Shown in pieces: positions 4,853 through 29,148 of a stretch of DNA of 64,000 bases. Positions within the stretch are counted from its first letter, which is position 1; each line of letters starts with the position of its first letter. Made by a program: the position numbers and the translations under genes. Under the pieces are notes generated by a model. That model was not told the DNA's origin, did no database searches, and was given only the letters and a program-made list of their open reading frames with translations. The stretch spans positions 78,638 through 142,637 of the forward strand of contig JAGORR010000001.1 in assembly GCA_018062765.1 (NCBI GenBank), read 5' to 3'. This DNA is from Minisyncoccota bacterium (GTDB lineage Bacteria > Patescibacteriota > Minisyncoccia > Phycocordibacterales > Phycocordibacteraceae).

Positions 4853-4860
4853 ACTAGAAG

Positions 4861-5986: not shown

Positions 5987-6026
5987 CGCTCTATAGTATA
6001 CCGCCCGAGCGCCGAGTTTTGCGTGG

Positions 6027-6635
6027 TTATTGTGACGTACCCTCGTCTATGGGTTCACGATACGGGTCGCGAGCATAATTTTTTGGTACAGGAGCCGGAA
6101 GTGGCGCGATAGACGCAGGTGTTGTGACTTCACGCTCTGTTCGAGGGAGGCGGGGCTCGAAGACTGCTGGAGGTGTCACCGGCTCAGGGCGCGGCGCGGG
6201 AGGAGCAACAGGAGCAGAAGTTATCACAGGTGCAAGCGGCGCGGCTGGAGCGATTGGAGCAGTGGGTGGAGGAGTGGTGCCAAGAGGTGCAGGCACGTCG
6301 GTGAGTGGCGCGCGCGCAGGCTTCCCGGCCTCGCTCCGCATCTTCTCGTGGAGGGGCTTGAATATCGCGTCATTAAGTTCCTTGGCGATGAGAGAGGCTT
6401 TCAGATTAGATATGCCCATCTGCTCCATCTCCTGTATGAGCTGTGCAGGATTGATGAATCCGGACAACATAAGTCCAATGGACTCATCCAAGTCGCCTAC
6501 GACGTCTATGTGTAACTGGTACTTTGCACCTATGCGGCGCACTGCTGGCCCTAATTCACCGCTCGCGAGGTACTCACGAACAGAAAGAGGAAGACCGCGA
6601 TATGCCCGCAAAAGTTCTTCGTGTGGAATCTTCAT
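6027..6635 (-). CDS. hypothetical protein with Pro/Ala-rich C-terminus
   Basis: 202 aa with a helical N-terminal domain followed by PPPTAPIAPAAPLAPV... No family recognised. Confidence 0.55.
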   Translation of the reverse strand: MKIPHEELLRAYRGLPLSVREYLASGELGPAVRRIGAKYQLHIDVVGDLDESIGLMLSGFINPAQLIQEMEQMGISNLKASLIAKELNDAIFKPLHEKMRSEAGKPARAPLTDVPAPLGTTPPPTAPIAPAAPLAPVITSAPVAPPAPRPEPVTPPAVFEPRLPRTEREVTTPASIAPLPAPVPKNYARDPYREPIDEGTSQ

Positions 6636-6641
6636 AGAGAG

Positions 6642-8933: not shown

Positions 8934-8938
8934 ATCGG

Positions 8939-10390: not shown

Positions 10391-11364
10391 AGGCTGGTTG
10401 CAGAAAGGAGTGCGTAGAACCCGGCGCCGGCACCCGTTCGCGCAGCACCCGTTGCGTCGTACGCTTTCTTCACGGCTTTGAAGCCATCGATCATGCTGCG
10501 CGCATCCTTCTCATAATTTCCAAACCCAATCATCGCGCGCACAGGATCATCAGTGAGTGAAGCCATGTCCCCAATCGTCGCTCCGAGCCGTGCGATTGCG
10601 TTCGTAAGTGACTGATGTGCGCTCGTAAGTGCTATTGGCGCAGCGACCCCTCGGAGGCCTTCTGCTATCGCAACGTAATGGTCTCCTATCCGCTTTACCT
10701 GTGCGAGCGCATTCGTATCGCTCTTGAGCACTGCGTCGCTGAAATACGTAAGCTCGCTTTCCGGGAGCGAGAGCGCGTTCTTGGCAAATGCCTGCTCAGC
10801 CCCTGCAAGGTATGAGCTAGGGGTCGCTCCCTCGCTCGCTACGAAGTCGGCAACGACGTATGCGTCATCACGCGTCGCTTCGCGGCGGATTTCGTCAACC
10901 GCGCTTACGACGAACGAGCGCAGTGCCTCAGCGGTGAGTTTCTCCCCTCCCCCGGTAGTGACGTACGTCTCGAAGAACGTGAGCGCGAATTTCTCGGTGA
11001 GGGAACCTGGTGCCGGAGTTACCCCTGGCATGCTTGCGATGATGTCGCTTCCTATAGTGCCTTCGGGCGCCTCAATCGTGGGGCGCACGAGGCCCTGGGC
11101 AAGCGCCTCGCTATCCTTGATGTCGCTCCGTACCGAAGTAGCGTCCTCCGGGTCCATCCCATACAGGAGCTCCTGCCAGTCTGGAACGCCATCGGCATCC
11201 GTATCCTTCGCGGCGTATTCTTTAAGCACCTCCTCGGTCTCCTCTGCAGATAGCGTTGGCGTTGGTGGAGCGCCGTTTTGTATGTAGTAGGCGCCTCCGA
11301 TGAGCACAATCGCGATGAGCGATGCTCCTCCTACTATCCAGTGCGTTCGTGTGACAGCAATCAC
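10387..11364 (-). CDS. membrane-anchored hypothetical protein with Ca-binding-like DxDxDG motif
   Basis: 325 aa with an N-terminal TM helix, then DTDADGVPDWQELLYGMDPED (thrombospondin-type-3-like). It is the first gene of the block. Confidence 0.55.
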   Translation of the reverse strand: MIAVTRTHWIVGGASLIAIVLIGGAYYIQNGAPPTPTLSAEETEEVLKEYAAKDTDADGVPDWQELLYGMDPEDATSVRSDIKDSEALAQGLVRPTIEAPEGTIGSDIIASMPGVTPAPGSLTEKFALTFFETYVTTGGGEKLTAEALRSFVVSAVDEIRREATRDDAYVVADFVASEGATPSSYLAGAEQAFAKNALSLPESELTYFSDAVLKSDTNALAQVKRIGDHYVAIAEGLRGVAAPIALTSAHQSLTNAIARLGATIGDMASLTDDPVRAMIGFGNYEKDARSMIDGFKAVKKAYDATGAARTGAGAGFYALLSATSL

Positions 11365-11420
11365 GGCAGTTTCGCATTAATAGTATCACCGAAATCTCAC
11401 CATCCCCCCGAGAGCGGTGG

Positions 11421-12218
11421 CTACCGTTGTGAACTGCTTGCCGAATCGGTGAGCGCGCGAGCAAGATTCTTCCACGTATCGATGGAAAGCTCCTCGGCGC
11501 GGGCGTTTGGAGATATGGAAAGTGCAGTAAATGCTTGTAAGACGCTATCGGGTGGCAGGAGATCCTCGAGATTCTTTGCAAGCCTTTTGCGTTTATGTGC
11601 GAACCCGGTCCGCAAGACTTCAAAGAACGCCTTTTCTTCCTGAAGCGAGGCAAAGGGGCTCCTGATGTCCTTGATGTGGAGTACTGCGGAGTCAATGTTC
11701 GGTGCCGGAAGAAACGCGCCGCGCGGTACGGTGAAAAGATAGGAGGGCTCTCCGAAGGCGCGCACGGCGATTGAGAGAATGCTTCCCTTTTTGTCTCGGG
11801 CGACGCGCTCTGCGACCTCTTTCTGTACCAGGATGGTTACCGAAGCTGGCTTCGCTTGGGCTGAGAGGAATGTGCGGATAATCTCACCGGTGAGGTAGTA
11901 CGGAATATTGGCGACCAGGTGGTAGCGGTCATGGAGCGCGCTTGGTCCGAATTCTCGGATATCCGCATTGATGAGCTCGAGCCGTCGACCTTTGATTTCC
12001 CCGGCAAAACGCTCCGCGAGCGCCGGGATGAGCTCGCGATCTGCCTCGACCGCGATAACCTTCTTGGCGCGCGCCAAAAGCGGCGCGGTCAGCATGCCGG
12101 TCCCGGGACCTATCTCAAGTACGACATCATCCGCTCCTACGCCGGACTCGATAGCGATATGCTCCGCTATCTTCGCGTGCATGAGAAAGTTCTGCCCGAG
12201 TGATTTCTTAGCTTGCAT
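11421..12218 (-). CDS. rsmA: 16S rRNA (adenine1518/1519-N6)-dimethyltransferase
   Basis: KKSLGQNFL and VLEIGPGTGMLT motifs. Start moved to ATG 12218 (MQAKKSLGQNF), 4 nt after the pcrA stop. Confidence 0.85.
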   Translation of the reverse strand: MQAKKSLGQNFLMHAKIAEHIAIESGVGADDVVLEIGPGTGMLTAPLLARAKKVIAVEADRELIPALAERFAGEIKGRRLELINADIREFGPSALHDRYHLVANIPYYLTGEIIRTFLSAQAKPASVTILVQKEVAERVARDKKGSILSIAVRAFGEPSYLFTVPRGAFLPAPNIDSAVLHIKDIRSPFASLQEEKAFFEVLRTGFAHKRKRLAKNLEDLLPPDSVLQAFTALSISPNARAEELSIDTWKNLARALTDSASSSQR

Positions 12219-12222
12219 ACGG

Positions 12223-14157
12223 TTAGTGTATCTGCGGCAGACCATCATGTTCGCCAATCTCCGCGACAGTGAGCGAAGGATCGATTTCCGATAGGAATTG
12301 CGACGGCTCCGAAAGGAAGTCCGTTCCATAGATACGGCGTACATGTGCGAGCGTGAGGATCAGGGTCTTTCGTGCGCGCGTCATGGCAACGTAGAAGAGG
12401 CGGCGCTCCTCCTCCTCATCGCGATCGTTATCATCGCCACCCTCATGCGGAAACAATCCCTGCTCGAGCCCTGAGACGTAGACGGTATCGAATTCGAGTC
12501 CCTTAGCCGCGTGCACCGTCATCAGAGTGACGCCGTTCTTCTTTACTTCCTCGCGCGGCCTATCGATCTCGTCCTGGTCGCCTGAGAGCGCCGCGTCTGC
12601 GAGGAATGCGCATATCCCTTCTTCGCCTGGGGTTGCGTCGAACCGGCTTGCGAAGGTCGCAAGCTCCTTCGCGTTCTCAATGCGCTCTTCGCCTTCCTCC
12701 CCGCCTTTCTCTAAGGAACTCATGAGACCGCTTTTCTCGATGACGAGCTTTACGAAAGCAGAGGGAGCAAGTTCTTTTGACGCCCTGTGGAGCGTTTCGA
12801 TGAGGGCATCAAACGCAGCGATTTTCGTGCGATCCGCGGCACGTAACTCCGCAGTTTTTCCGGCCATGATCTTCCCTACCGTAGTCTTTCCGATGCCGCG
12901 TGCAGGCGCCTGCATAGCGCGGAGCCGGTCAGACTCGCGTGTGGGGTCAAGCGCGGCGCGCATCCACGCGACCGCGTCTTTAATCTCCTTGCGGTCGAAG
13001 AAGCGGATGCCCAATAGTCGGTACGGTACGCCGTAGCGCAGGAACGCTTCCTCTAGGGCACGTGACTGGAAATTCGTCCGATATAGAACGGCGATGCTTT
13101 CCGGCTCATCCCCGCGTAGGACGCGTTTCTTCGTGTCGGATGCTATCCACGCAGCCTCGCCCTCAGCGTTCGCGGCGAGGTGTATGTGTATCGGCTCTCC
13201 GTCGTCGTTCGTCGTAACCGAACGCTTCTCCTTGCGATTCCGGTTCTTCTCGATGACCTGGTTTGCAGCTGCAACGATGGTTCCCGTCGAGCGGTAGTTT
13301 TCTTCAAGGATGACGGTTTTCGCGTCGGGATACGTGCGATCAAATTCAAGGAGGTTCTCGATAGTAGCGCCACGCCAGGTGTAGATGGTCTGATCGATAT
13401 CGCCGACCACAAACAGGTTGCGGTGCTTGCCCGAAAGCAGGTTCGCGAGCCTTCCCTGGAGTTCGTTGGTGTCCTGGTACTCGTCGATATGCACGTGCGA
13501 GAAGCGCGACTGCATCGCGTCGAGCGCTTCAGGGTGTTCTTCTAGGAGGCGAAGTGGAAGCAGAATCAGGTCATCGAAATCGAGCGCCTTTGCTTCCTTC
13601 AAGGAGCGCTCGTACTTAAGCCATGCTTCCGCGACGATGCGCGTCCGGAAGCTTTCGCGTGCATGGCGCGCATGGAACTCATCCGAACGCATTCCTGCCC
13701 CCTTTGCTTTACTGATACGCCCGAGAACGGTGCGCGGCGGCACCTCCTTGGGGTCAACATCAAGCGCCTTCAAGGCCTCCTTTATCGCACGTTCGGAATC
13801 ATCGCGATCGAATATAGAAAAGTAGCGGGGAACGCCGATAAAGCGCCCATGGGTCTCAAGTATCTCGCGTCCGAGTCCGTGGAAAGTCGCAATGAATGGA
13901 AGGTCTCGTCTGCGGCGGGTGTCGCCGGTCTCTCCGAGAAGCGTGGCGAGCCGTTCACGCATCTCACGGGCTGCCTTATTGGTGAATGTTACGGCGAGGA
14001 TTTTCTCAGGAGGCGTCCCTTCGCGGATGAGGTGGTAGATGCGACTCGTGAGTACCCGGGTTTTCCCTGAGCCTGCCCCTGCGAGTACCGAGATAGGGCC
14101 TTGGGTCGTAAGCACAGCCTCCTTTTGTCTTTCATTGAGGCCGTGGAGGTACTCCAT
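12223..14157 (-). CDS. pcrA: UvrD/PcrA-family ATP-dependent DNA helicase
   Basis: VLAGAGSGKTRVLT (motif I), IDEYQDTN (motif II) and TVHAAKGLEFD near the C-terminus. Confidence 0.9.
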   Translation of the reverse strand: MEYLHGLNERQKEAVLTTQGPISVLAGAGSGKTRVLTSRIYHLIREGTPPEKILAVTFTNKAAREMRERLATLLGETGDTRRRRDLPFIATFHGLGREILETHGRFIGVPRYFSIFDRDDSERAIKEALKALDVDPKEVPPRTVLGRISKAKGAGMRSDEFHARHARESFRTRIVAEAWLKYERSLKEAKALDFDDLILLPLRLLEEHPEALDAMQSRFSHVHIDEYQDTNELQGRLANLLSGKHRNLFVVGDIDQTIYTWRGATIENLLEFDRTYPDAKTVILEENYRSTGTIVAAANQVIEKNRNRKEKRSVTTNDDGEPIHIHLAANAEGEAAWIASDTKKRVLRGDEPESIAVLYRTNFQSRALEEAFLRYGVPYRLLGIRFFDRKEIKDAVAWMRAALDPTRESDRLRAMQAPARGIGKTTVGKIMAGKTAELRAADRTKIAAFDALIETLHRASKELAPSAFVKLVIEKSGLMSSLEKGGEEGEERIENAKELATFASRFDATPGEEGICAFLADAALSGDQDEIDRPREEVKKNGVTLMTVHAAKGLEFDTVYVSGLEQGLFPHEGGDDNDRDEEEERRLFYVAMTRARKTLILTLAHVRRIYGTDFLSEPSQFLSEIDPSLTVAEIGEHDGLPQIH

Positions 14158-15540: not shown

Positions 15541-15566
15541 AGCCCCGGGCTGCGGGGCTTTTTTAT
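15541..15566. terminator. bidirectional intrinsic terminator
   Basis: AGCCCCG-ggctg-CGGGGCT flanked by an A-run and a T-run, between convergent genes. Confidence 0.6.
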
Positions 15567-17173
15567 TCAAATCCAAAAAGTCCGCGTGGTCGGTATTGCA
15601 ACGCTTCGTGGACGTGTTGGGGTAAGACTTCATCGCAGTCCTCTAGGTCTGCGATGGTGCGGGCCACACGCATGACGCGGTGATAGGCACGTGGTGAAAG
15701 GTCGAGCCGTGTGGCGGCGGTAAGAAGAGTTTCTCTCGCCTCAGTCGTGAAATGCGCGGCTTCAATCTCCTTGCCGGAGAGGCGTCCGTTTGCTACCTCC
15801 TTCCCACTCCTCTCTTTTGCGCGCGTTCTGGCACTAATGACACGCTTGCGCACTGCTTCCGAAGACTCCCCTTCTGAAAGCTGCGCGAGCTTCTCGTGGG
15901 CGATGTGCGGTACTTCAACCCAGAGGTCAAGACGGTCGACGATAGGCCGCGAAACCTTCCGTGCTTGCTTGCGGGCCTGCCGCACCGCTTCCTCGGCGTG
16001 CGCGGATAGCGTATCTGCGGGATTCATAGCGGCAACGAGCATGCAGTCGGCAGGAAATGTGACAGTAGCGCGAGCGCGCGAAACGGTGATTACTCGATCT
16101 TCGAGTGGCTGACGCAAAGACTCGAGGACACGTGACTCGAACTCGACGAACTCATCGAGGAAGAGAACGCCCTTATGTGCAAGCGTGATTTCTCCGGGGC
16201 GTGGGATTACTCCTCCTCCAACGACTGCCGCATGCGACGTCGTATGATGCGGCGAGCGAAACGGCGGCCAATCGACGGCGTAGTCATCATGCATGACGCC
16301 TGCTGACGAATGTATTGCAGTGACTTCGAGCACCTCATCAGGAGAAAGGGGCGGCAGGATGCCAGAGAGTGCGCGTGCGAGCATTGTCTTTCCCGTTCCT
16401 GGCGGGCCGTATAGGACGAGATTATGACGTCCAGCTGCCGCTATTTCCAAGGCGCGCTTCGCGCTCTCTTGACCCCGTACATCCGTAAGATCGACTGCAG
16501 GTGGTGCGATTTTTCTACGCACTTCCCGCGGCTTGGCTGCGAGTTTCTCTGTACCGGAAAGATGCGCGACGAGCGCCTTAAGAGACTCTGGTGCGTACAC
16601 TTTGATACCTTCGGCGAGTAAGGCCTCCTTCGCGTTACCCGGTGGAACATACGCGCAAGTAAATCCCGCGCGTTTGGCAGCCATCACTTGGGAGAGGATA
16701 CCGCGCACAGGTTTCAAGGTGCCGTCGAGTGCAAGTTCACCCGAGAATAAGCACCGTGTGTCAGTCGAGGGAAGTGCATTTGTTGCGACCAGGTAGCAGA
16801 CCGCGAGCGCAAGATCGTAGTGCGAGCCCTCCTTCTTGAGGTCTGCAGGGGAGAGTGAGAGAACGATTTTCTTATTCTCTGCCTTCGGGGATTTGATACC
16901 AGCGTGTCGTATCGCCGCGGCGATACGATCGCGTGACTCCTCGACCGCTTTATCGGGTAGGCCGACTATCGTAAACGCATGGAGTCCGCGCGTTACATCA
17001 GCCTCGACCGCGACGACTTCCCCACCGCCTGCGATAGGTTGGGAAGCGTGTACGCGAGCGTACCCGCTTCCCGTCTCGTCCCTCTTTTTCGGCGCGGCGC
17101 CGAGCGTGAGCGCGTCCTTTGCCACTTCCGCTATTGTACGACCGCGCGTACGCGCGGCGATGAGAATCCACAC
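15563..17173 (-). CDS. comM: YifB/ComM Mg-chelatase-like AAA+ protein
   Basis: N-terminal [18 protein letters not shown], Walker [14 protein letters not shown] and a ChlI-like C-terminus. The first ~35 codons may not be translated. Confidence 0.85.
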
Positions 17174-20001: not shown

Positions 20002-20511
20002 TTAGCGCGCGCCGATGAGGAAGCGCTTCGGATCCTCGCACATGTCGGTAAACGCGTGCGCGGCTTCTTTCAGTTTCCCCGACGACGACTTCCCGAACGA
20101 GATCACCTCGGTCTGTACGCCGTTCATATCAAGGAATTCGATAAGTGGTACGAAGTCACCATCGCCAGTCGCGAGGATTATCGTATCGAGCTTGTCTGAG
20201 AGTTTCACCGCGTCTATTGCGATACCCACATCCCAGTCCGCCTTCTTCGCGCCATCGGAGAAGACCTGCAGGTCCTTGACCTTGGTCTCGATGCCGATTT
20301 TGGTGAGCGCGTCGAAGAAGTTTTTCTCGTCCCCTGCCTCGGTCGAGATGACGTATGCGATAGCGCGCACCAAGGTGCGGCCTCCCACGGCCTCTTCGAG
20401 GACCTTGGCGAAGTTGACTCGCGCTTTATAAAGGTTCTTCGCGCTGTGGTACAGGTTCTGCGTATCGATGAAAACGCCGACGCGCTGAGCCGTATGTTTA
20501 ATGACTGCCAT
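20002..20511 (-). CDS. NYN/LabA-like (DUF88) domain protein
   Basis: VGVFIDTQNLYHSAKN and ILATGDGDFVPLIEFL signatures; 169 aa. Confidence 0.75.
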   Translation of the reverse strand: MAVIKHTAQRVGVFIDTQNLYHSAKNLYKARVNFAKVLEEAVGGRTLVRAIAYVISTEAGDEKNFFDALTKIGIETKVKDLQVFSDGAKKADWDVGIAIDAVKLSDKLDTIILATGDGDFVPLIEFLDMNGVQTEVISFGKSSSGKLKEAAHAFTDMCEDPKRFLIGAR

Positions 20512-20652: not shown

Positions 20653-20919
20653 TTACTTCTTCAACCCGAGCTTTTTGACAATCGCGTTGTAGCGACGCTT
20701 GTCGTTTGCCTCAAGGTAGCGAAGATGCGAGCGACGATCAGCAACCATCTGAAGAAGTCCGCGACGCGAGTGTACGTCCTTATTGTTCTTCTTCAAGTGC
20801 TTCGTGAGGTCCTCGATACGACGCGTCAAAATAGCTACCTGTACGTCAGGTGAGCCTGTATCGCCTTCGTGCCGGGCGGCATTCTTCATGACTGCCGCCT
20901 TTTTCTTCGTAGTAAGCAT
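20653..20919 (-). CDS. rpsO: 30S ribosomal protein S15
   Basis: GDTGSPDVQVAILTRRIEDLTKHLKKNNKDVHSRRGLLQMVADRR. Start moved to ATG 20919. Confidence 0.9.
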   Translation of the reverse strand: MLTTKKKAAVMKNAARHEGDTGSPDVQVAILTRRIEDLTKHLKKNNKDVHSRRGLLQMVADRRSHLRYLEANDKRRYNAIVKKLGLKK

Positions 20920-21123
20920 GTGAACGTACCCTACCACATATTGACTATTCGCGCAAGGGTTATCTGGTGCGGAGTCGAGTCAAAACCGCGAACTGCTTTG
21001 TTGGGGAGGCCTCCCTGTTTTCTCCATCGTATGTATATACGACTACGAAAACCTCAGCTTCCCGCCGTGCATTTCATCGATGCTGAGCTCGCTCCGGTAA
21101 TTACAATATTTTCCGACGCTTGG

Positions 21124-21132
21124 TGGTACAAT
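21124..21132 (+). promoter_or_regulatory. extended -10 (TGgTACAAT) 7 nt upstream of recombinase ATG, possible leaderless mRNA
   Basis: TGGTACAAT at 21124-21132 and ATG at 21139. No good -35 and no SD. Confidence 0.35.
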
Positions 21133-21138
21133 TTTTTT

Positions 21139-22035
21139 ATGGACGCACAGACGATGAAGCGGCAATTCCTCGAATATATCGAAATCGAGCGCGGCCGTTC
21201 GGTGAAGACGGTTGAGAACTACGACCGCTACCTCACTCGGTACCTGACGCAGATGAAGGTAGGCCAGGTAGGAGAGATTACGGAGGAAAGTATTCGCGAG
21301 TTCCGTATGTGGCTTAACCGCCAGCCCGGGACCGGCAAGGATTCGATGAAACGCCGCACGCAGAACTACTACCTTATTGCGCTCCGCGCCTTCCTGAAGT
21401 TCCTCCGCAAGCGCGGGGTCGAAAGCTCTTCCCCGGAACGTATCGAGCTTGCAAAGCTCCCCGAACGTCATCTGGACCTCATTACCTCAGCCGAGCTCGA
21501 TAGGCTCATGAAGGCAGCCGATGGCGACTCGGAGCGCTCGCTTCGTGATAAGGCCATCCTCGAGATGCTTTTCTCTACGGGTCTTCGCGTTTCAGAGCTG
21601 TGCGCACTCGATTCCGACCTCGACCTTACCCGGGACGAGCTCTCCGTGCGCGGCAAGGGAGACAAGGTACGCGTGGTATTCCTCTCCGAAGCTGCTAAAG
21701 ACGCCGTGAAGGCGTATCTAAAGGCTCGCAAGGACATGGGCGAGGCGCTTTTCGTGAATATCGCGAAGGGTCGTGAGCGGGGCGAGCGTCTCACTCCCCG
21801 TTCTATAGAGCGCACTATGAAAACGTATGCCGCGAAGGCGGGCATCACCAAGAAGGTCACTCCCCACGTGCTCCGACACTCGTTCGCGACCGATTTACTC
21901 TCGAATGGCGCTGATATTCGTTCTGTGCAGCAGCTTTTGGGGCATGCCTCTATCAATACGACGCAGATCTATACCCACGTCACCGACTCTCATCTGCGTG
22001 AGGTCCACAAAAAGTTCCACGGGCGTACGCGCTAG
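21139..22035 (+). CDS. tyrosine recombinase, XerC/XerD family
   Basis: N-terminal SAM-like domain (FLEYIEIERGRSVKTVENYDRYL) and catalytic LRHSFATDLL ... TQIYTHV. Start at ATG 21139 rather than the tracked 20869. Confidence 0.85.
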   Translation: MDAQTMKRQFLEYIEIERGRSVKTVENYDRYLTRYLTQMKVGQVGEITEESIREFRMWLNRQPGTGKDSMKRRTQNYYLIALRAFLKFLRKRGVESSSPERIELAKLPERHLDLITSAELDRLMKAADGDSERSLRDKAILEMLFSTGLRVSELCALDSDLDLTRDELSVRGKGDKVRVVFLSEAAKDAVKAYLKARKDMGEALFVNIAKGRERGERLTPRSIERTMKTYAAKAGITKKVTPHVLRHSFATDLLSNGADIRSVQQLLGHASINTTQIYTHVTDSHLREVHKKFHGRTR

Positions 22036-22057: not shown

Positions 22058-22852
22058 ATGCGCATCATGAGCTGGAACGTGAACGGCATCCGTGCCGTTC
22101 ATAAGAAAGGCGTCTTCCTCCCCTTCCTTAAAAAGTACAAGCCGGACATCCTCTGTCTCCAGGAGACTAAGGCGGAACAAGAGCAGTCCCCTCTTGACCT
22201 CCCTGACTATGAGGAGTATTGGAGCTCAGCAAAGAAGAAGGGCTACAGTGGAACGGCTATTTTCACCAAGGTTACCCCGGATGACGTAGTTTTTGGCATG
22301 CCGGAGGACATTGCTAAAAAGTGGGGGCTTGCGGGCGATAGCTACGGAGACCCAAACCAGGAGGGGCGTATCGTCGCCTGCGATATGCATGATTTCTGGG
22401 TGGTATCGGTCTACACTCCGAACGCTAAGGACGATCTCTCCCGTCTTCCGCTGCGTCATAAGCACTGGGACCCTGCGTTCCTCGAATATATGAAGCGACT
22501 TGAGGAGGATAAACCCGTCATATTCTGCGGGGACTTAAACGTTGCTCACACTCCGGAAGACCTCGCCCGTCCCAAGGAGAACGACGGTAAGAAAGGATTT
22601 ACTAATGAGGAGCGCGAAGGGATTGATAACATCATCTCCGCTGGCTTCTTCGACACCTTTCGTGCCTTCAAGCAGGGCGGCGGTTTCTATACATGGTGGA
22701 CCGCATGGGGCGGGGCGCGTGAGCGCAATGTGGGATGGCGTATCGACTACATTTTTGCCTCAAGTTCTTTTAAGAAGCATGTTAAAGGCGCCGACATACA
22801 TCCTGATGTCATGGGCTCCGATCACTGCCCCGCTTCCCTTACTCTGGGATAA
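22058..22852 (+). CDS. xth: exodeoxyribonuclease III
   Basis: MRIMSWNVNGIRA ... GSDHCP. Confidence 0.9.
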   Translation: MRIMSWNVNGIRAVHKKGVFLPFLKKYKPDILCLQETKAEQEQSPLDLPDYEEYWSSAKKKGYSGTAIFTKVTPDDVVFGMPEDIAKKWGLAGDSYGDPNQEGRIVACDMHDFWVVSVYTPNAKDDLSRLPLRHKHWDPAFLEYMKRLEEDKPVIFCGDLNVAHTPEDLARPKENDGKKGFTNEEREGIDNIISAGFFDTFRAFKQGGGFYTWWTAWGGARERNVGWRIDYIFASSSFKKHVKGADIHPDVMGSDHCPASLTLG

Positions 22853-22873
22853 AGGACAAATGTCCTTTATCCC
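22846..22873. repeat. perfect 13-bp-arm palindrome GGGATAAAGGACA-aa-TGTCCTTTATCCC overlapping xth stop
   Basis: Read directly. It is the fused form of the GGGATAA and AGGACA half-motifs that recur up to 28508. Confidence 0.85.
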
Positions 22874-22879
22874 CACTAA

Positions 22880-22920
22880 TGTCCTTTACACTAAGTAACT
22901 ACGCCGTAAGATAAAGGACA
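22880..22920. repeat. two further TAAAGGACA copies in divergent orientation
   Basis: TGTCCTTTA at 22880-22888 and GATAAAGGACA at 22910-22920. Confidence 0.8.
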
Positions 22921-23223
22921 GAGCGAGACGGCGCACCGAGATTTGGTAGGCGCATTTGACCCGGGCTTCGAGATTTCTGTACGCCGTCTGGCACTAACCC
23001 AGATGTTCTTTACGGCTCTTTCCAAAACCTAGTGAAGCGCGAAGTTAGCGAGATCGGCTACGAACTTCGGGGCGTATCCCCGCATACTAAAGAGGCCCGT
23101 TTCCCGTGAAAAGCGCTGTAGTCGTACCTTCGAGACGAAGTCCAAAAATAAAGACCGCCACAGAGAGGCGCATCTATTGGGGTCCTATCACATGCCCCCT
23201 GCTCCTTTCCGGGACCCCGCCAA

Positions 23224-23252
23224 ACCGCCTTACCTAAGGCGGTCTTTTATTT
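23224..23252. terminator. intrinsic terminator next to cca stop
   Basis: ACCGCCTTA-cc-TAAGGCGGT followed by CTTTTATTT. Confidence 0.55.
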
Positions 23253-23269
23253 CACGCGAAACAGCTCCC

Positions 23270-24733
23270 CTAGCAAACGTTGTGCTTCTCGAGGATGCGC
23301 CGTACTTCCAACTCCTCCTCAATCTCGCGACGTTTTTTGCCGGACTCCCCCATGTCCTTTAGCTCACTGTCCTTTAGAGCAAGTAATTCCCCTGCCCTAC
23401 TATCCATATACTCCTCCGTATTCTTCTCAGGATCGATAAGTACCTCCTCCAAGAGTGCATTTAAAGTCCACCCAATGCGCGGACCAGGTTCCACGTGAAA
23501 GCGGCTCATAAGACGTCTACCGTCAGTCTTAAGCATTGCTACGGATATCGGGTCGCGAAGCGCCTGTTCAACCATGGCCTTGTACTTACGGAAACGAAAA
23601 GGCTGCTCTTTAGGGCGGCCAGTACCTATGCGGTCACATATCCTAAGGTTCAACAGATCCCAAATATTCTCCTCCCCTACGTTCACAATCATCCGGCGGA
23701 CAGCGGACAGCGATATTTGGTCAGGGTCGGAGAAGAACATGTGCCAGCGTACTAGTTTCACAACTTTTGAGATAGTTTCCCGTGAAAACCGGAGGTCCTC
23801 TAGAGCTTTGCGTGTTACACGTGAACCAACTACCTCGTGTCCGTGGAAAGTCCAGTCCTGTTTCTCTTCGGACCAACGCCTAGTGTCTGGCTTAGCGATA
23901 TCGTGGAATAGGGCAGAAAGGCGTATATCGAAGCCCCATCCCTTGTCTGCGGCGTGCTGCATGCTTCGCATAAGATGCTCGAACACGTCGTAGCTGTGTG
24001 CCTGATTTTGCGCCACGCCGACGGACTGCGGCAAATCAGGAACTATATGTGGCAACAAACCGAGCTGCAGAGCCAAGGTGAATGCCATCATTGGCTGGTC
24101 AGACATGAGGATTCGGGTAAGTTCATCCCGAACCCTTTCACGTGAAATAGCCCCTAGATTGCTAGCTTTTTCGCTTATTGCAGCCGCAGTTTCGCCATCT
24201 AGGACAAATCCAAGCTCTGCGACGAGGCGTATAGCCCGCATAAGGCGCAGTCCGTCTTCCTCAAATCGGATGCTAGGTACTCCTACGGCCCGGAGAACCT
24301 TGGCTTTCAGGTCTACTTGTCCTTTATAGGGGTCTACGATGTGTCCTTTAGAGTCGTCCAGGGCTATGGCGTTCACGGTGAAGTCCCGGCGAGCGAGGTC
24401 ATCCTCGAGGCTCTCGCCGAATATGACTTCGTCCGGCCGGCGCTTATCGGAGTACCCGGTCTCGGTTCGATATGGGGTCACCTCGACAACTGCCGTTGTC
24501 TCGTCCTCAGACCCGGTCTTTACCCCGACTGTCCCGAACTCGTTTTCGTAAAAGGAGTCGGGGAAGACTCTTTGGATGTCTCCTGGCTTTGCGTTGGTGG
24601 TGACATCCCAATCCTTGGGCTTTCGATTGAGCAATAGATCACGTACACAGCCGCCCACCAGGTAGGCCTCGAAGCCTGCATTGCGCAAGTCCCCGGCGAC
24701 CTTCTCTACTACGTTTGGAATAGGGAAGTGCAT
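23270..24733 (-). CDS. cca: CCA-adding tRNA nucleotidyltransferase with HD domain
   Basis: GGCVRDLLLNRKPKDWDVTT head domain and FHDIAKP HD motif. Confidence 0.9.
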   Translation of the reverse strand: MHFPIPNVVEKVAGDLRNAGFEAYLVGGCVRDLLLNRKPKDWDVTTNAKPGDIQRVFPDSFYENEFGTVGVKTGSEDETTAVVEVTPYRTETGYSDKRRPDEVIFGESLEDDLARRDFTVNAIALDDSKGHIVDPYKGQVDLKAKVLRAVGVPSIRFEEDGLRLMRAIRLVAELGFVLDGETAAAISEKASNLGAISRERVRDELTRILMSDQPMMAFTLALQLGLLPHIVPDLPQSVGVAQNQAHSYDVFEHLMRSMQHAADKGWGFDIRLSALFHDIAKPDTRRWSEEKQDWTFHGHEVVGSRVTRKALEDLRFSRETISKVVKLVRWHMFFSDPDQISLSAVRRMIVNVGEENIWDLLNLRICDRIGTGRPKEQPFRFRKYKAMVEQALRDPISVAMLKTDGRRLMSRFHVEPGPRIGWTLNALLEEVLIDPEKNTEEYMDSRAGELLALKDSELKDMGESGKKRREIEEELEVRRILEKHNVC

Positions 24734-24799
24734 AACAATATTCTACGGCATGACCTAGCGCGCTTCCTAAATGAATTATATGATTGTGTGTATAGAACT

Positions 24800-25462
24800 A
24801 TGAAAGAGAAAGTTCAGCATAAGAAATACGCGACTGATTTGCGACTAGCAGGGAGCACCTATTCGGAGATACTCGCGCAAGTCCCTGTTTCGCGTGGCAC
24901 ATTATCAGCGTGGCTTAGTGATGTTCCTCTACCGGAGAACGTGGTAAAGCACCTCTCCGCCAATCGGCGAGCGAGGGTCAGTCAGGCAAGAAGAAGGGAA
25001 GCGACGGTCCGGAAAGCGGCAGCGATAGTTCGCCGCGGATTCGCTGAAAAAGGTGCAAAAAAGGAATTCGAAAGACACTCGAAGGAACCCTTTTTCCTGG
25101 CCGGTCTCGGTCTTTATCTTGGTGGCGGGACCTTTGGGAAGGCATCCTTCTCGTACATGTCCGGGGAGGAGCGCCAGATAGCGCTAATGGTCCGCTGGGC
25201 TAAGGAATACCTTGCCCACGAGAGTCGTATAGCGCTCCGACTCTATCTGCCGCCCTCCATGGACCTCGGATCTGCCCGTGTGCACTGGTCCAAGGCCACC
25301 GGGCTCCCTGCAGCAGCCTTCAAGAAGGCGGTGATGACGAAGGAAAGGGCCAGAAAACCTAGTAATTACGCGGGTATTGCCCGATTGGAGCTTACGGGTG
25401 GCAGGGCAGCGCTTCGTGTGCGCGTGTGGCTGGATATGCTTGTTGTGCGCTATGCGGAATAA
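24800..25462 (+). CDS. HTH protein with degenerate LAGLIDADG-like domain
   Basis: N-terminal YSEILAQVPVSRGTLSAWL (HTH), then FFLAGLGLYLGGGTFGK ... VHWSKATGLPAAAFKK. Resembles a homing-endonuclease-like family I recall from Actinobacteria/CPR. Start set at ATG 24800. Confidence 0.55.
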   Translation: MKEKVQHKKYATDLRLAGSTYSEILAQVPVSRGTLSAWLSDVPLPENVVKHLSANRRARVSQARRREATVRKAAAIVRRGFAEKGAKKEFERHSKEPFFLAGLGLYLGGGTFGKASFSYMSGEERQIALMVRWAKEYLAHESRIALRLYLPPSMDLGSARVHWSKATGLPAAAFKKAVMTKERARKPSNYAGIARLELTGGRAALRVRVWLDMLVVRYAE

Positions 25463-25481
25463 AGCTAGTGTTTACCTCAGG

Positions 25482-25553
25482 CTCCGATAGTGAAATGGAT
25501 ATCACATCAGTCTTCGGAACTGACGTTCCAGGTTCGAATCCTGGTCGGAGCAC
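25482..25553 (+). tRNA. tRNA-Arg (anticodon TCG), no encoded CCA
   Basis: Hand fold: acceptor GCTCCGA/TCGGAGC, D GTGA/TCAC, anticodon stem TCAGT/ACTGA with loop CTTCGGA, T arm CCAGG-TTCGAAT-CCTGG, discriminator A. Confidence 0.9.
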
Positions 25554-25555
25554 AG

Positions 25556-25747
25556 AAAGCAGCAAACCCGAGCTTACGCTTGGGTTTGCTGCTTTCTGGC
25601 TCAAGGCCAGGATTCGAAAGACGGAGTCGGTATACAAGCGAGCGAAGCGAGGCTTGAGACGATGAAAGCTGCCGGGGGTCGCTTTCATGGGTCGCGGAAA
25701 TCCCGCGTAGAGGGATTATCCGTGACCGAATCCTGGTCGGAGCACAC
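25556..25747 (+). other. tRNA-Arg-trailing unit: 15-bp hairpin plus 5'-truncated tRNA-Arg copy with 120-nt T-loop
   Basis: Hairpin GAAAGCAGCAAACCC/GGGTTTGCTGCTTTC (25556-25597). CCAGG-ATTCGAAAG at 25608. Exact 20-nt repeat of the tRNA 3' end (25536-25555) at 25728-25747. Confidence 0.8.
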
Positions 25748-25793
25748 TAAGAATTGAAGAAAAGGCATAGCTATGGGAATATAGAGCCCGTAG

Positions 25794-25864
25794 CGGCTAT
25801 GGTTTAGTGGTAGAACGCGTCCTTGCCAAGGACGAGTCGGGAGTTCGATTCTCCCTAGCCGCAC
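25794..25864 (+). tRNA. tRNA-Gly (anticodon GCC), no encoded CCA
   Basis: Acceptor GCGGCTA/TAGCCGC, anticodon stem CGTCC/GGACG with loop TTGCCAA, T arm GGGAG-TTCGATT-CTCCC. Confidence 0.9.
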
Positions 25865-25865
25865 T

Positions 25866-25990
25866 AAGAAAAGCGAAGCTTTGCGTGTACAGACGAGGGA
25901 GGATCGAAGGCCGGAGCGCGGCGGCGCGAGGCGAGGTCGCGGCCATTTTCAGAAGAAAATGAGCTGTGACCGATTCTCCCTAGCCGCACC
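25866..25990 (+). other. tRNA-Gly-trailing unit: 5'-truncated tRNA-Gly copy with 74-nt T-loop
   Basis: GACGA-GGGAG-GATCGAAGG at 25893. Exact 19-nt repeat of the tRNA 3' end (25847-25865) at 25972-25990, here followed by CCA. Confidence 0.8.
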
Positions 25991-25996
25991 AGAGCG

Positions 25997-26028
25997 AAAA
26001 GCGCCCGGAAGGGCGCTTTTCGTTTATA
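25997..26028 (+). terminator. intrinsic terminator of the tRNA transcription unit
   Basis: GAAAAGCGCCC-ggaa-GGGCGCTTTTC followed by GTTTAT. Confidence 0.7.
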
Positions 26029-26085
26029 GACAATAGGGGATAACTACCTACCTCTCCCTTGAACGCATAATTTCTAGGCCATTTC

Positions 26086-26114
26086 TTGGTGTTGACTTCA
26101 TGAAATGGTATAAT
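26086..26114 (+). promoter_or_regulatory. sigma70-type promoter with extended -10
   Basis: TTGGTG, 17-nt spacer, TGgTATAAT (26106-26114). Confidence 0.5.
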
Positions 26115-26120
26115 CCTAGA

Positions 26121-26355
26121 GCCTCGCAAGGGGTGGCAGGTATGGTCAGGTATCGGGACGAAAGTCGTTGCGTAAGCACAGCTCTAGTGGTCGGTACTTG
26201 TAAGGTCGAAAGACCTCGAGTACCTGCCAGTGGAGCTGTTTTCGTGGGCCCGCGGAACCAGTTTGAGCCCTCCACGGGTTAGCGATGAACCTGCACCTCG
26301 AATTTCGCGGTGTCGCTGGTCGACAAGATACCAGCATCGTAATCTTGGTCAAAAC
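26121..26355 (+). ncRNA. candidate structured leader/ncRNA (family unknown)
   Basis: 8-bp closing helix GGCAGGTA (26135-42) / TACCTGCC (26221-28) enclosing two GAAA-tetraloop hairpins (GAC-GAAA-GTC, AGGTC-GAAA-GACCT). Further nested helices (GTGGA..GGGC..GCCC-TCCAC; AGCGA..TCGCT). No credible ORF. Confidence 0.3.
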
Positions 26356-26475
26356 ATGACTAAGACGATTACGAGGAGCGCGAAGACAGGTCGCTTCGTA
26401 CCGGCAAGGCAGGCGATCACTCGCCCCGCTACGACGGTACGGGAGACAATCTTCGTCCCTCGCAAAAAGAAGTAA
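26356..26475 (+). CDS. 39-aa basic protein (KTGRFV...TTV.E type)
   Basis: MTKTITRSAKTGRFVPARQAITRPATTVRETIFVPRKKK. Resembles small conserved hypothetical proteins I recall from actinobacterial mobile DNA. Below the track cutoff as a stand-alone ORF. Confidence 0.4.
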   Translation: MTKTITRSAKTGRFVPARQAITRPATTVRETIFVPRKKK

Positions 26476-26551
26476 GCCCCCTAGCTAAACGCTAGAGAGC
26501 TTGCTTCGTAAGGAAGCAAAAGCGCTCACAGCAGGTGTGGGTGCTTTTGCT

Positions 26552-26628
26552 TAAGGACATGGTACCACAGGTGTCCTTTAGACCACCAACCACACCGATA
26601 GGCAGGGGATAATCATGTAATTTATCCC
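26552..26628. promoter_or_regulatory. two palindromes upstream of the NYN-Zn gene (operator-like)
   Basis: TTAAGGACA-N12-TGTCCTTTA (26551-26580) and GGGGATAA-N9-TTATCCC (26605-26628). Confidence 0.45.
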
Positions 26629-26759
26629 TAGAAAGCATAATCGATTGAATAAAATCAAAGGATCTCAGGAATATTATCGGCTTATGCAAGGCACATTTTA
26701 TCGCTGTCCACACCTGCATTGTACGTTCACGGAATAAGGTGTAGCGTTGAAGTAAAGAT

Positions 26760-27371
26760 ATGAAGCGGTACGCATTTATAGATGTCGAAAATACGGCCAC
26801 GACAGCCGAAGATATGCTTGGCTTTGTCGTTGATTGGTCAAAAGTGGCTGATTTCCTCAAGAATGTGAAAAGTTGTACAGAAGTGTTCTACTACACGGCT
26901 ATAGAGACTGGTGATGCCCAGAAGGCGGCAGAGTTCGAGGCGATCGATAAAACTGCCTGCTGCGTTGTTAGGGCGAAACAAAAGATGCTCTATAAGCGTA
27001 AGGACAAGTATCTTTCTTTCACGTGCTCAAAGTGCGGGGAACCCGGCAATAAAAGCATTGACATGGGGTACAACGTCAAAGGTAACTGCGATGTTGAATT
27101 AACGGTGGATGCTCTCGAGCATGGAGAGAAAGATAACGAATTTTACATATTCACGGGCGACGGTGATTTCGAGTACCTAGCTATAAAGCTTATGGAGCGG
27201 GGCGTTAAGGTCGTGTTTGTTTCTCACGCAAAAGTGATTCAGAGGGCTGGTCAGCCCTATGGACGGTATTCAAAAAAGCTTAGAGATCTTGTTGCTGCCA
27301 ACCCGACCCACCTCTCTTTCCAAGAACTAGATAATTGGAAGAAGAAATTTGAGCGCGTAATTGTGCCGTAA
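26760..27371 (+). CDS. NYN/LabA-like domain protein with inserted CxxC zinc-ribbon-like segment
   Basis: YAFIDVENT ... FTGDGDFEYLAIKLMERG (NYN), with inserted FTCSKCGEPGNKSIDMGYNVKGNC. Confidence 0.7.
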   Translation: MKRYAFIDVENTATTAEDMLGFVVDWSKVADFLKNVKSCTEVFYYTAIETGDAQKAAEFEAIDKTACCVVRAKQKMLYKRKDKYLSFTCSKCGEPGNKSIDMGYNVKGNCDVELTVDALEHGEKDNEFYIFTGDGDFEYLAIKLMERGVKVVFVSHAKVIQRAGQPYGRYSKKLRDLVAANPTHLSFQELDNWKKKFERVIVP

Positions 27372-27562
27372 ATACGCCGTATAAATACGAAAACGCCGCG
27401 AAGCGCGGCGCCTTCTAAGGACTCCCTCAGTATACTCAGGACCCATGAGGTGTCAATTAAGGGTCAAGGGGTCTTTCTAATAACCTGTTGATAGCTGATT
27501 TAAGAAGAATTTAAGATAGTTTCAAGTATAATTTTCACAAATGGATCAACCCGAGTTTCTTT

Positions 27563-28450
27563 CTATACTTTCGAGAGCAATACGGTTCCGAGGAGCGCAG
27601 AAAACCGCTGACTGTCGCTGTGTCGGTTGTTCCAATGGAACGAATACGCATCTAGATACCCCTGAAGGTGTCGCTTCGACACCACCTTATACGTCCCCCG
27701 AAGAGAGCGCTTCACGTGCGCCCAATACGCCTCAATAGTGTTTATGTAGATTGGGCCTCGCGCCCATTCTTTCTTTGAGTGATTCACCATGTATCGCTCG
27801 TAGCCTATAGCTACATTGTCTAGGGTCTTAGTAGCGTCAGTCATGAGCGCGGTGCCTTCCTCCTCAACGTTTTCCCGAAGAAACCGGCCGTGGGTATCTG
27901 CGCCTATGTCGGGTACGACCTTGGTGCGTACCTCGCCGTTTCGCTGTACCGCGCCTATAACCGGGGACTTAGCCCTAATGTTCCTGCTCTGGTGCATATT
28001 GTCCTTCCCGCCGTCACCCTTGCCGCCCATATAGGTGCTATCCACCTCGACAACCCCCGACAGCTTCTTGGGAGTCTGTTTCCCGAGGGATTCGCGGATC
28101 AGTTTCAGCATTCGCCACGCCGTCTTATAGGTCACTTCAAGCTGTCGCTCCATCTCCTTAGCTGAAATGCCGCTCTTGGCGTTAGAAAAGACCCACAGGG
28201 CATGGAACCAGAGGGAAAGGGGAGTATCTGACTTATGGAAGATCGTGCCTGCTGTAGGGGCTATCTGGAACCTACACTTGGAGCATTGATACTGTTTCCG
28301 GCCTGAAATGCGCCTGTAGGTACCACCACAGGAGCACTCCCGGCTGTGGAGGGAATCGAAAATGAAGTCCAGACAGACCGCGTCGGTCGGGAAATCACGT
28401 TTTAGGGAAGATAGGCCGTATTTACTCATTATTCTCACTCTATCGGACAT
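27563..28450 (-). mobile_element. IS1595-family transposase gene (element ends not defined)
   Basis: N-terminal Zn ribbon CSCGGTYRRISGRKQYQCSKCRF and an ISXO2-like DDE region (VVEVDSTYMGG, LMTDATKTLD, NTIEAYWAHVKR). Terminal inverted repeats not found by eye. Confidence 0.75.
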
Positions 28451-28474
28451 GGATTATGTTGTCAAGGGATATCG

Positions 28475-28508
28475 GGGGATAACTAAGGGGACATGTGGAT
28501 AAAGGACA
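28475..28508. repeat. GGGGATAACTAAGGGGACATGTGGATAAAGGACA motif cluster
   Basis: Contains GGGGATAA, a TAAGGGGACA variant and GGATAAAGGACA. Lies between the transposase start and yraN. Confidence 0.7.
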
Positions 28509-28577: not shown

Positions 28578-28973
28578 ATGAATCTCGAGAAGGCCACAAA
28601 GAAGGAAATCGGTGATTATGGTGAAAGGGCCGTCGTCCGAGAGCTCGAGAGGAATGGCTACAGGCTAGTTGGTAGGAATATCGCACGAAAGACAGGAGAA
28701 ATAGACGTGCTAATGCGAAAGAGCGATACCCTCCACTTTATCGAAGTTAAGGCGCTCTCATGTGAGGAGTTGCCGGATCTTGAAGCGGTAAACGATCGCT
28801 ATGACCCCTCTGCAAACCTTCATGAGGCGAAGGTACGAAAAGTCGCCCGGACAGCTGAGTGGATAGTCGCAGAAAAGGAGTGGGAAGGGGATTGGCAGGT
28901 TGATGGCGCCCTAGTATGGCTCCGGCTGCGCGATGGAGTCGCCAAGGTCCTCCATCTGCCGCAAATCGTCTAG
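28578..28973 (+). CDS. yraN: YraN-family (UPF0102) endonuclease-like protein
   Basis: GDYGERAVVRELERNGYRLVGRN ... GEIDVLMRK ... FIEVKA. Confidence 0.8.
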   Translation: MNLEKATKKEIGDYGERAVVRELERNGYRLVGRNIARKTGEIDVLMRKSDTLHFIEVKALSCEELPDLEAVNDRYDPSANLHEAKVRKVARTAEWIVAEKEWEGDWQVDGALVWLRLRDGVAKVLHLPQIV

Positions 28974-29074: not shown

Positions 29075-29148
29075 CGGGCCGTCGTATACCGGTAGTACGC
29101 TTGGTTTGGGACCAAGATGACCGGGTTCGATTCCCGGCGGCCCGACCA
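29075..29148 (+). tRNA. tRNA-Pro (anticodon TGG) with encoded CCA
   Basis: Acceptor CGGGCCG/CGGCCCG, anticodon stem CTTGG/CCAAG with loop TTTGGGA, T arm CCGGG-TTCGATT-CCCGG, ACCA end. Flanked by a perfect 14-bp leader/trailer complement (29061-29074 / 29145-29158). Confidence 0.85.

Follow-up and report, generated by a model that had tools for sequence, protein, structure and literature searches.

Introduction

Why should a single nine-base word recur again and again within one short segment of a very small bacterial genome, and what might read it there? The question is raised by a 64,000-nucleotide (nt) stretch of the chromosome of a Minisyncoccota bacterium (assembly GCA_018062765.1, contig JAGORR010000001.1; hereafter the window), in which the word TAAAGGACA is found in one patch that runs from the 3' end of xth through cca to the 5' flank of yraN. 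We find that this 9-mer is shared by related genomes at orthologous positions, that it stands in fixed register with words recognizable as binding boxes of the initiator DnaA, and that it is interleaved with sites resembling the centromere sequence parS. On balance, we think that TAAAGGACA (family TAWARGACA, with a GGACA core) is probably the asymmetric 9-bp box of a putative lineage-specific DNA-binding protein, one that would work with DnaA at an origin-proximal centromere hub.

Experimental knowledge of the replication and segregation of very small chromosomes in the Candidate Phyla Radiation (CPR)/Patescibacteria is scant. The locus described here gives a deeply conserved map, with a predicted origin at dnaA-dnaN and a predicted parS cluster approximately 25 kb away that is partly contained in cca and flanked by arrays of DnaA boxes. 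It also provides a sharply defined new 9-bp box that could be used as bait for its binding protein, and a clear case of regulatory or architectural DNA sites that appear to be held in essential coding sequence by selection at synonymous positions.

Occurrence of the 9-mer in the window

The window contains ten copies of TAAAGGACA or its complement, compared to 0.26 expected, and none of 100 shuffled sequences reached ten. All ten copies lie within 22850-28508 (5.7 kb), and a search of the rest of the window returned no further exact copy. An initial annotation of this DNA, made from the letters alone, had listed eight of these copies; its eight coordinates are all correct, and it overlooked the two at 24318 and 24342, inside cca. 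The arrangements that it described, in which the 9-mer is combined with the heptamer GGGATAA, are present as well: a 28-bp perfect palindrome at the end of xth, whose first 9-mer starts with the xth stop codon (the open reading frame (ORF) ends at 22852), two split palindromes 5' of a gene for an NYN-domain protein, and tandem half-motifs at 28475-28508. The even genome-wide spread that the annotation had named as the finding that would speak against it is not what we see: in the sequence examined, which comprised ~74 kb of this genome's ~638-kb contig and 20-kb samples of relatives, the motif is strictly local both in the window and in the relatives' loci.

The second component behaves differently from the 9-mer. 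GGGATAA shows no enrichment across the window (seven copies compared to 5.6 expected), with six of the seven inside the patch. The 8-mer GGGGATAA occurs four times, compared to 1.2 expected, every time in the patch, and GGGGATAACTA was found at 26036 and 28475. The patch had been labeled accessory, a description that fits ORF220, the NYN cassette and the IS1595-family transposase, all of which are variable. It does not fit most of the 9-mers, which lie in conserved DNA, namely the spacer between xth and cca, cca itself and the region 5' of yraN.

Conservation in related genomes

For comparison we used 80 xth loci of related species, in which xth is 65-84% identical. TAAAGGACA is the most widely shared 9-mer among these 80 relatives, with 217 copies in 63 loci, and ranks above words derived from tRNAs. 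Its copies fall at three orthologous sites: site A, directly after the xth stop codon; site B, within cca; and site C, ~80 nt 5' of yraN, which in relatives without yraN lies 5' of tRNA-Pro. Across 53 syntenic loci, the 9-mer, parS and the DnaA boxes are confined to the interval from -1 to +3.5 kb around cca, and their numbers are approximately zero in the remaining ±10 kb. For exact TAAAGGACA, 194 copies are in this hub and 12 are outside, a 46-fold difference in density between a ~4.5-kb stretch and its flanks, and most of the 12 outside copies are equivalents of site A in loci without an adjacent cca. Information content is restricted to the nine positions TA(A/T)A(G/A)GACA, with flat flanks on either side. 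The 9-mer is an ancient, selected DNA box found across a clade of uncultured CPR/Paceibacteria.

The boxes seen in the examined sequence belong to one locus (xth, noncoding region, cca, tRNA, yraN), ~25 kb from dnaA-dnaN. They occur singly, in tandem with periods of 9-24 bp, or inverted with gaps of 12-41 bp, an arrangement suggesting that one protein subunit occupies each box, as at DnaA boxes or SinR-type operators. This genome has more 9-mers than most relatives, the additional ones being at site A, at 23353 and 23368 in cca, and in the pair 5' of the NYN gene. A full-text literature search for both words returned primers and unrelated matches only, and scans of IMG/VR for convergent and tandem pairs of the 9-mer gave about the chance level, together with repeats of giant viruses.

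At site A, the motif is present in 40 of 43 relatives, and in 25 of them a DnaA box lies between convergent copies. Only this genome has the 28-bp palindrome. In relatives, the arrangement is TAAAGGACA-N12..41-TGTCCTTTA with the DnaA box between the arms, and a gap of 2 nt between the two 9-mers is found in this genome alone, compared to 12-41 nt elsewhere. The palindrome exists here owing to the insertion of an additional TGTCCT, by which a 9-mer comes to overlap the DnaA box. One distant relative (locus L070, 7053-7079) independently has a near-palindrome, TAAAGGACA-cggaca-TGTCCTTTATCCC, ~300 nt 3' of xth. Convergent copies that are tightly packed and overlap a DnaA-box-like end have thus arisen more than once.

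Selection on DNA inside cca

Site B allowed us to ask what is being conserved, the DNA or the peptide. When 25 cca genes were aligned by codon, the box codons TCT-AAA-GGA-CA. and TAT-AAA-GGA-CAA-AAG-GAC proved nearly invariant at synonymous positions, and the adjacent codons vary freely. The box codons are among the lowest of 330 columns in synonymous entropy. For example, Gly130 is encoded by GGA in 24 of 24 sequences, compared to an average of ~1.65 bits over the 22 glycine columns and 0.87 in the next lowest. The codons that are fixed are minor ones (AAA 35%, CAA 30%, TCT 20%). Among 56 cca genes with identities down to 45%, 46 have at least one site, and sense-strand sites at residues 125-157 are found in 43. 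These sites use two reading frames, encoding either K-G-[QH] or [IL]-K-D. The synonymous freeze and the use of two frames argue for selection on a DNA site and not on a peptide motif, and selection thus acts on the DNA inside cca.

DnaA boxes in register with the 9-mer

GGGATAA had been taken for the second half of one motif together with the 9-mer. It is instead recognizable as the DnaA box of this clade, which occurs as TGGGGATAA or TTATCCCCA here and as canonical TTATNCACA in relatives, and which forms a predicted cluster outside the unwinding origin. Site A in relatives reads (TATAGGACA)-TAAAGGACA-n-TTATNCACA-n-TGTCCTTTAC-n-TGTCCTATA. Its central word varies in the way that a DnaA box does (TTATCCACA, TTATACACA, TTATGCACA, TTATCCCCA or TTGTCCACA, inverted once), and the homologous site in relatives matches TTAT[C/A/G]CACA. 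The same words accompany dnaA: TTATCCCCA is directly 5' of the dnaA -10 element in this genome, about five boxes of the GGGGATAA type are in its 218-bp dnaA-dnaN spacer, and in dnaA loci of 80 metagenomic relatives the words TT[ATC]TCCCCA and TT[ATC]TNCACA show a 14- to 28-fold enrichment next to the gene.

The relation between the two words is most regular at site C. A gapless alignment of ~30 genomes gives TGTGGAYAA-n2-(weak box)-n-TGGGGATAAAGGACA-tAAGACA, with three to four boxes in the same orientation, ~10.5-11 bp apart and helically phased, the final one sharing TAA with the 9-mer. The window reads ...GGGGGATAActaaGGGGACATGTGGATAAAGGACA at 28464-28508, where the last, perfect box (TGTGGATAA, 28494-28502) overlaps the 9-mer at 28500-28508. 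Over all sites, the offset from box to 9-mer is fixed, with the box starting at -6 (27 cases) or +13 (23 cases) and always in the same orientation. Two composite registers are observed: TGGGGATAAAGGACA at the end of the phased array 5' of yraN, and TTATNCACA-N4-TGTCCTTTA at the -35 element 3' of xth.

Site A also contains a predicted promoter, P_A (Table 1). In an alignment of 21 sequences (A1), ATGTCCTTTAC hardly varies and the -10 element always retains its TA...T; relatives have a second box in the spacer region of the promoter. The conserved noncoding stretch 3' of P_A folds with a z-score of -2.3, and consensus folding yielded nothing beyond one 4-bp covarying hairpin. Possible identities of this stretch are a new small RNA and an attenuated leader.

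The parS cluster and the replication origin

The 9-mer clusters enclose a second set of sites. Taking the parS palindrome as tGTTTCACGTGAAACa, we found five parS-like sites in the window (12-mer core, at most one mismatch), compared to 0.08 expected, all of them at 23100-24147, between the 9-mer clusters. In 25 relatives, the low-entropy cca codons 198-199 (CGT GAA) and 316-319 (TTT TCA .. GAA) coincide with parS-like sites, and the predicted centromere is partly built into the essential gene cca. The hub can be described as a putative centromere-like parS cluster combined with a cluster of predicted DnaA boxes and the new 9-mer.

The genes dnaA and dnaN are ~25 kb from the patch, a short way past the window's left end. 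The spacer between them ends with TTTTCCCCG-TATCAACAG-GGC-TAATAGTATTAG, that is, two tandem boxes, a GC cluster and DnaA-trios, with trio repeats of the form TAATAGTA(T/A)TAG. Box-box-GC-DnaA-trio is a basal unwinding system, in which the DnaA-trios lie within 16 bp of the box (PMC8287927). Given this unwinding signature, and given that the GC-skew sign change is close to dnaA and not at the hub, the origin is most likely at dnaA-dnaN. TAR repeats are present in the dnaA-dnaN spacer, and none were found next to sites A and C. The 9-mer was counted 12 times in 924 kb of sequence from dnaA loci, compared to ~14 expected, which is the chance level, and parS was found once.

Features and genes of the locus

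Table 1. Features of the 9-mer locus and its surroundings, in window coordinates unless a relative's locus is named.
Feature	Coordinates	Strand	Remark
Exact TAAAGGACA copies	22850+, 22861-, 22880-, 22912+, 23353-, 23368-, 24318-, 24342-, 26572-, 28500+		ten copies
Site A core, 28-bp perfect palindrome	22846..22873		GGGATAAAGGACA-aa-TGTCCTTTATCCC; convergent 9-mers 22850+ / 22861- with DnaA-box-like outer halves
DnaA box TTATCCCCA (predicted)	22867..22875	+	clade variant; overlaps 9-mer at 22861
9-mer TGTCCTTTA	22880..22888	-	3' part plus next base form -35 hexamer TTTACA (22885-22890)
P_A, sigma-70-like promoter (predicted)	22885..22912	+	TTTACA-16-TAAGAT
Fourth site-A 9-mer	22912..22920	+	over -10 end and predicted start site; gain specific to this genome
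Conserved noncoding stretch, ~330 nt	22919..23252	+	3' of P_A
Hairpin, then T-tract	22985-23015		in noncoding stretch 3' of P_A
1-mismatch 9-mer site TGTTCTTTA	23004-23012		in noncoding stretch 3' of P_A
Covarying hairpin GGGG-CGTAT-CCCC	23069-23081		covarying form GGNN-CGTAT-NNCC; loop CGTAT invariant
Terminator	23224-23252		ends noncoding stretch 3' of P_A
parS-like sites	23100-23111, 23250-23261, 23489-23500, 23776-23787, 24136-24147		each at most 1 mismatch to TTTCACGTGAAA
Further parS-like site	23814-23827
parS-like sites inside cca	23489-23500, 23776-23787, 23814-23827, 24136-24147
Two tandem 9-mers in cca	23353..23376	-	15-bp period; C-terminal coding region (LKDSELKD); specific to this genome
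Site B, two 9-mers in cca	24318..24350	-	24 bp apart; codons S128-K-G-H and Y136-K-G-Q
GGGGATAA, DnaA-box-like word	26036..26043	+	3' of tRNA-Gly and its insert
Pair 5' of accessory NYN gene	26551..26628		TTAAGGACA-N12-TGTCCTTTA (26551-26580), then GGGGATAA-N9-TTATCCC (26605-26628)
Site C, phased DnaA-box array (predicted)	28464..28508	+	aGGGATATc, GGGGGATAA, aGGGGACAt, TGTGGATAA; 78 nt 5' of yraN start codon
NYN-domain gene	20002-20511
rpsO	20653-20937
Xer-type recombinase	21067-22035		~800 bp upstream
xth (exodeoxyribonuclease III)	22058..22852	+
Noncoding spacer, ~420 nt	22853-23269
cca (CCA tRNA nucleotidyltransferase)	23270..24733	-	coding sequence carries parS sites and 9-mers alike
ORF220	24800..25462	+	rare family
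tRNA-Arg	25481-25553
tRNA-Gly	25793-25864
tRNA-linked inserts	25554-25751, 25865-25989		direct repeats 25535-25559/25727-25751 and 25846-25864/25971-25989
tRNA-linked insert in relatives	L005 13030-13190 and 16420-16560; L014 12790-12910; L017 14360-14480
NYN-domain gene, accessory insertion	26760-27371	+
IS1595-family transposase, accessory insertion	27563-28450	-
yraN (UPF0102 family)	28578..28973	+
tRNA-Pro	29075-29148
Type IV secretion system (T4SS)-like cluster and competence/recombination genes	428-12344, 15563-17173, 28578-28973, 55893-57371
dnaA-dnaN spacer	L085 14936-15152		~3.7-3.9 kb left of window start

ORF220, which lies in the middle of the patch, belongs to a family of four proteins in a word-indexed search, to which copies of ~30% identity beside cca in five relatives can be added. 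It had no match in Pfam, NCBIfam or PDB and a marginal match only in PHROG. Its AlphaFold model is poor (predicted local distance difference test, pLDDT, of 60), the part past residue ~60 is poorly predicted, and a Foldseek search at E <= 0.001 returned nothing. By eye only, the FLAGLGLYLGGG stretch is similar to a LAGLIDADG motif, and a LAGLIDADG fold could not be confirmed. ORF220 is not part of the conserved system.

The segment at 25990-27560 is an accessory cassette. It contains a GC-rich leader that may be structured (26100-26350), a basic ORF of 39 codons (26357-26476) and an NYN-domain gene, 5' of which a pair of 9-mers and a pair of DnaA-box-like words have been gained. No similarity to this cassette was found in the relatives' loci, and the IS1595 transposase was detected in none of the 39 relatives listed. 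Behind tRNA-Arg, and likewise behind tRNA-Gly, comes an insert of 125-190 nt, the end of which repeats the last 19-25 nt of the tRNA before it. These inserts have a common core, ...GGATTCGAAAGCCGG-AGCGCG-..GAGGCGGGGTCGCGG-(hairpin)-CTGTGACCGA, and several relatives carry this core too, after various tRNAs; it resembles a small element that targets tRNA 3' ends, or a tRNA-like appendix. Rfam searches at gathering and E-value thresholds returned tRNAs only, with no match for the xth-cca spacer or the tRNA-linked inserts.

Between dnaA and the 9-mer hub is a cluster resembling type IV secretion or pilus systems (PrgI, a TraC-like protein, a TraG-like ATPase and a T4SS pilin). The window also contains the genes comM, yraN and comEC, which serve competence and recombination, consistent with the ComM-YraN pairing reported for natural transformation. 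YraN has been described as a D-loop nuclease that acts with ComM in transformation (bioRxiv 10.1101/2024.02.06.579203), and for this reason we set it aside as a candidate binder of the 9-mer. The 9-mer at site C was also considered as the -35 element of yraN and rejected, as its spacing fits no -10.

Discussion

We set out to explain why one 9-bp word is concentrated at a single locus. The word is local and deeply conserved, it is under selection at the DNA level, it is placed in register with words identified as DnaA boxes, and it shares its locus with parS-like sites and overlaps a conserved promoter. For such a word we infer a dedicated binding protein, and for the resulting complex a function in titration or regulation of DnaA, in centromere architecture, or in both. 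Operators for a DNA-binding protein had been suggested in the initial annotation, and this part of the suggestion is strengthened by the conservation of the sequence itself, the synonymous constraint in cca and the fixed register with DnaA boxes. The part that named the ORF at 24800 as the regulator does not stand.

A protein of this kind would bind beside DnaA or overlapping it, with one subunit per box. At site A, it could repress or gate the promoter whose transcription is directed into the parS cluster. Bound to site C, it could cap the strong end of the DnaA array, either stabilizing the DnaA oligomer or competing with it. Sites A and C, together with the boxes of site B in cca, would bracket the zone in which ParB-parS complexes nucleate, and possible outputs would be control of DnaA availability or shaping of the ParB complex. 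A more specific version is that the 9-mer marks a new chromosome-maintenance protein of Paceibacteria, which docks beside DnaA on the box array and brackets the ParB-parS zone in a single-locus complex partly within cca, thereby coupling initiator status to centromere function or confining the spreading of ParB. We offer this version tentatively, as a possibility with less than even chances. A binder that proves to be a partner of DnaA or ParB would add a new component to the control of bacterial chromosomes; an ordinary repressor would be a modest addition to CPR regulatory biology.

Several observations weigh against a dedicated partner of DnaA. The locality of the 9-mer is that of the ~74 kb and the 20-kb samples described above, and further sites may exist elsewhere in these genomes. 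No gene for a DNA-binding protein or transcription factor was found among the conserved neighbors. DnaA and ParB binding are predicted from sequence alone, and a fixed distance of 23-24 nt from the 9-mer to the parS center is confined to an AT-rich subclade (seven cases). The evidence for a structured RNA 3' of P_A is weak, consisting of one covarying 4-bp hairpin and the folding score given above. Finally, some of the data would be accounted for by a simple local repressor unconnected to DnaA or ParB.

This last explanation is unlikely in our view, and it is still the rival that deserves the most weight. The 9-mer would be an ordinary local operator, at which a repressor or activator whose gene is elsewhere regulates the noncoding transcript together with cca and the yraN/tRNA-Pro unit, and the proximity of DnaA boxes and parS would be incidental. 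Boxes do overlap the -35 element and the spacer of a conserved promoter, and short boxes in variable arrangement are also seen in SinR-type operators. However, an operator of this type does not account for the fixed register with DnaA boxes, or for sites that are maintained, despite their cost at synonymous positions, in a coding region with no promoter within ~400 bp. Site C is ~80 nt 5' of the yraN start codon and well 5' of yraN's own -10 element, and no box is found at other promoters in the 64 kb or in 0.9 Mb of dnaA loci.

The co-location of the 9-mer with parS, in the same exclusive 4-kb locus of 53 genomes, raises the alternative that the 9-mer is a second centromere box read by ParB or a partner of ParB, in the manner of Box B of plasmid P1 parS. 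The constant spacing in the AT-rich subclade would fit such a box. Most genomes, however, have no fixed spacing between the 9-mer and parS, and the tight partner of the 9-mer is the DnaA box; we consider this alternative quite improbable.

Two further alternatives seem very unlikely to us, each to about the same degree. One is that the element works in RNA, with UAAAGGACA serving as a binding or cleavage site in transcripts or with inverted copies forming a hairpin at the 3' end of xth. Sense-strand copies are found in cca, in a gene for a trypsin-like protease in some relatives, and 5' of yraN, and the convergent copies behind the xth stop codon could pair. However, both arms retain the sequence itself, with no compensatory changes, opposite-strand copies lie upstream of the predicted start site, and fixed offsets to DnaA boxes are a feature of DNA. 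The other is that the hub is an origin or secondary origin in which the 9-mers act like iterons alongside DnaA boxes, as might be suggested by the phased DnaA-box array, the lower G+C content of the patch and the local divergence of gene orientation around 21-28 kb. The array has no DnaA-trio or AT-rich unwinding module beside it, whereas the dnaA-dnaN spacer does, and the GC-skew sign change is near dnaA instead. Compared to iteron-type origins, with their direct repeats of 17-22 bp, the hub has boxes of 9 bp, no rep gene and housekeeping genes as neighbors.

The initial annotation had also proposed ends or remnants of mobile elements, a reading that we join here with that of an Xer/dif recombination site. 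The IS1595 transposase and the tRNA-linked insertions are in the patch, an Xer-type recombinase is encoded ~800 bp upstream, and the layout of the palindrome is 11-6-11. However, the sites occupy orthologous places within conserved gene order and are under purifying selection, including within the coding sequence of an essential gene, and in distant relatives the motif follows cca and yraN and not xer-xth. The 28-bp palindrome occurs in this genome only, the variable gaps of 12-41 bp with a DnaA box inside, as seen in relatives, speak against a dif/Xer site, and the locus, ~25 kb from dnaA/dnaN, is origin-proximal and not terminal, making this reading highly improbable. That the 9-mers are operators of the helix-turn-helix (HTH)/LAGLIDADG-like ORF220 is extremely unlikely, for although the ORF is inside the patch and its first ~60 residues are confidently modeled as short helices that could be read as HTH-like, only 5 of the 40 relatives with the motif have it next to cca, and there is no site in its own 66-nt upstream spacer (24734-24799), so that the proposed co-occurrence of motif and ORF family is not borne out.

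Comparison with known systems

In its use of short monomer sites that are single, tandem or inverted, with variable spacing and with inverted copies over the -35 and -10 elements, the locus resembles SinR-type operators, which contain GTTCTYT, and the inverted repeats at rep promoters of iteron plasmids. The words GTCCTTT and GTTCTTT resemble the SinR word. Unlike iteron plasmids, the locus has no rep gene and its boxes are 9 bp and not 17-22 bp long; no homologue of SinR or Rep was identified here.

The parS of plasmid P1 consists of Box A heptamers and Box B hexamers, and the half-site of chromosomal parS resembles Box A. The hub is similar in having two kinds of short box in one putative centromere. 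It differs from P1 parS in that the spacing from the 9-mer to parS is not fixed in most genomes.

Among systems that handle DnaA, the closest likeness is to the DnaA-box clusters (DBCs) of Bacillus subtilis and to datA and the DnaA-reactivating sequences (DARS) of Escherichia coli. In datA and DARS, sites for accessory DNA-binding proteins (IHF, Fis) are located among DnaA boxes. As in these clusters, several predicted boxes are found here, some of them phased with gaps of ~2 bp, in an origin-proximal intergenic position away from the unwinding module. Unlike in these clusters, the accessory site is a new 9-mer that overlaps the strongest box by 3 bp, and it is found again within a gene and over a promoter, with parS-like sites among its copies; the arrangement described here is known from its sequence.

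Boxes of a second regulator that overlap DnaA boxes of oriC are known for Spo0A (the 0A-boxes of B. subtilis), CtrA (Caulobacter), MtrA (Mycobacterium) and HP1021 (Helicobacter pylori). The 9-mer is like these sites in being a short asymmetric box in register with DnaA boxes or overlapping them. Those sites are in oriC, whereas the predicted dnaA-dnaN origin of this genome lacks the 9-mer and the composite sites are 25 kb away. The DnaA-box and parS components of the hub are thus classical, and what appears to be new, judging by the literature search above, is the 9-mer, its overlap with DnaA boxes and its upkeep inside cca.

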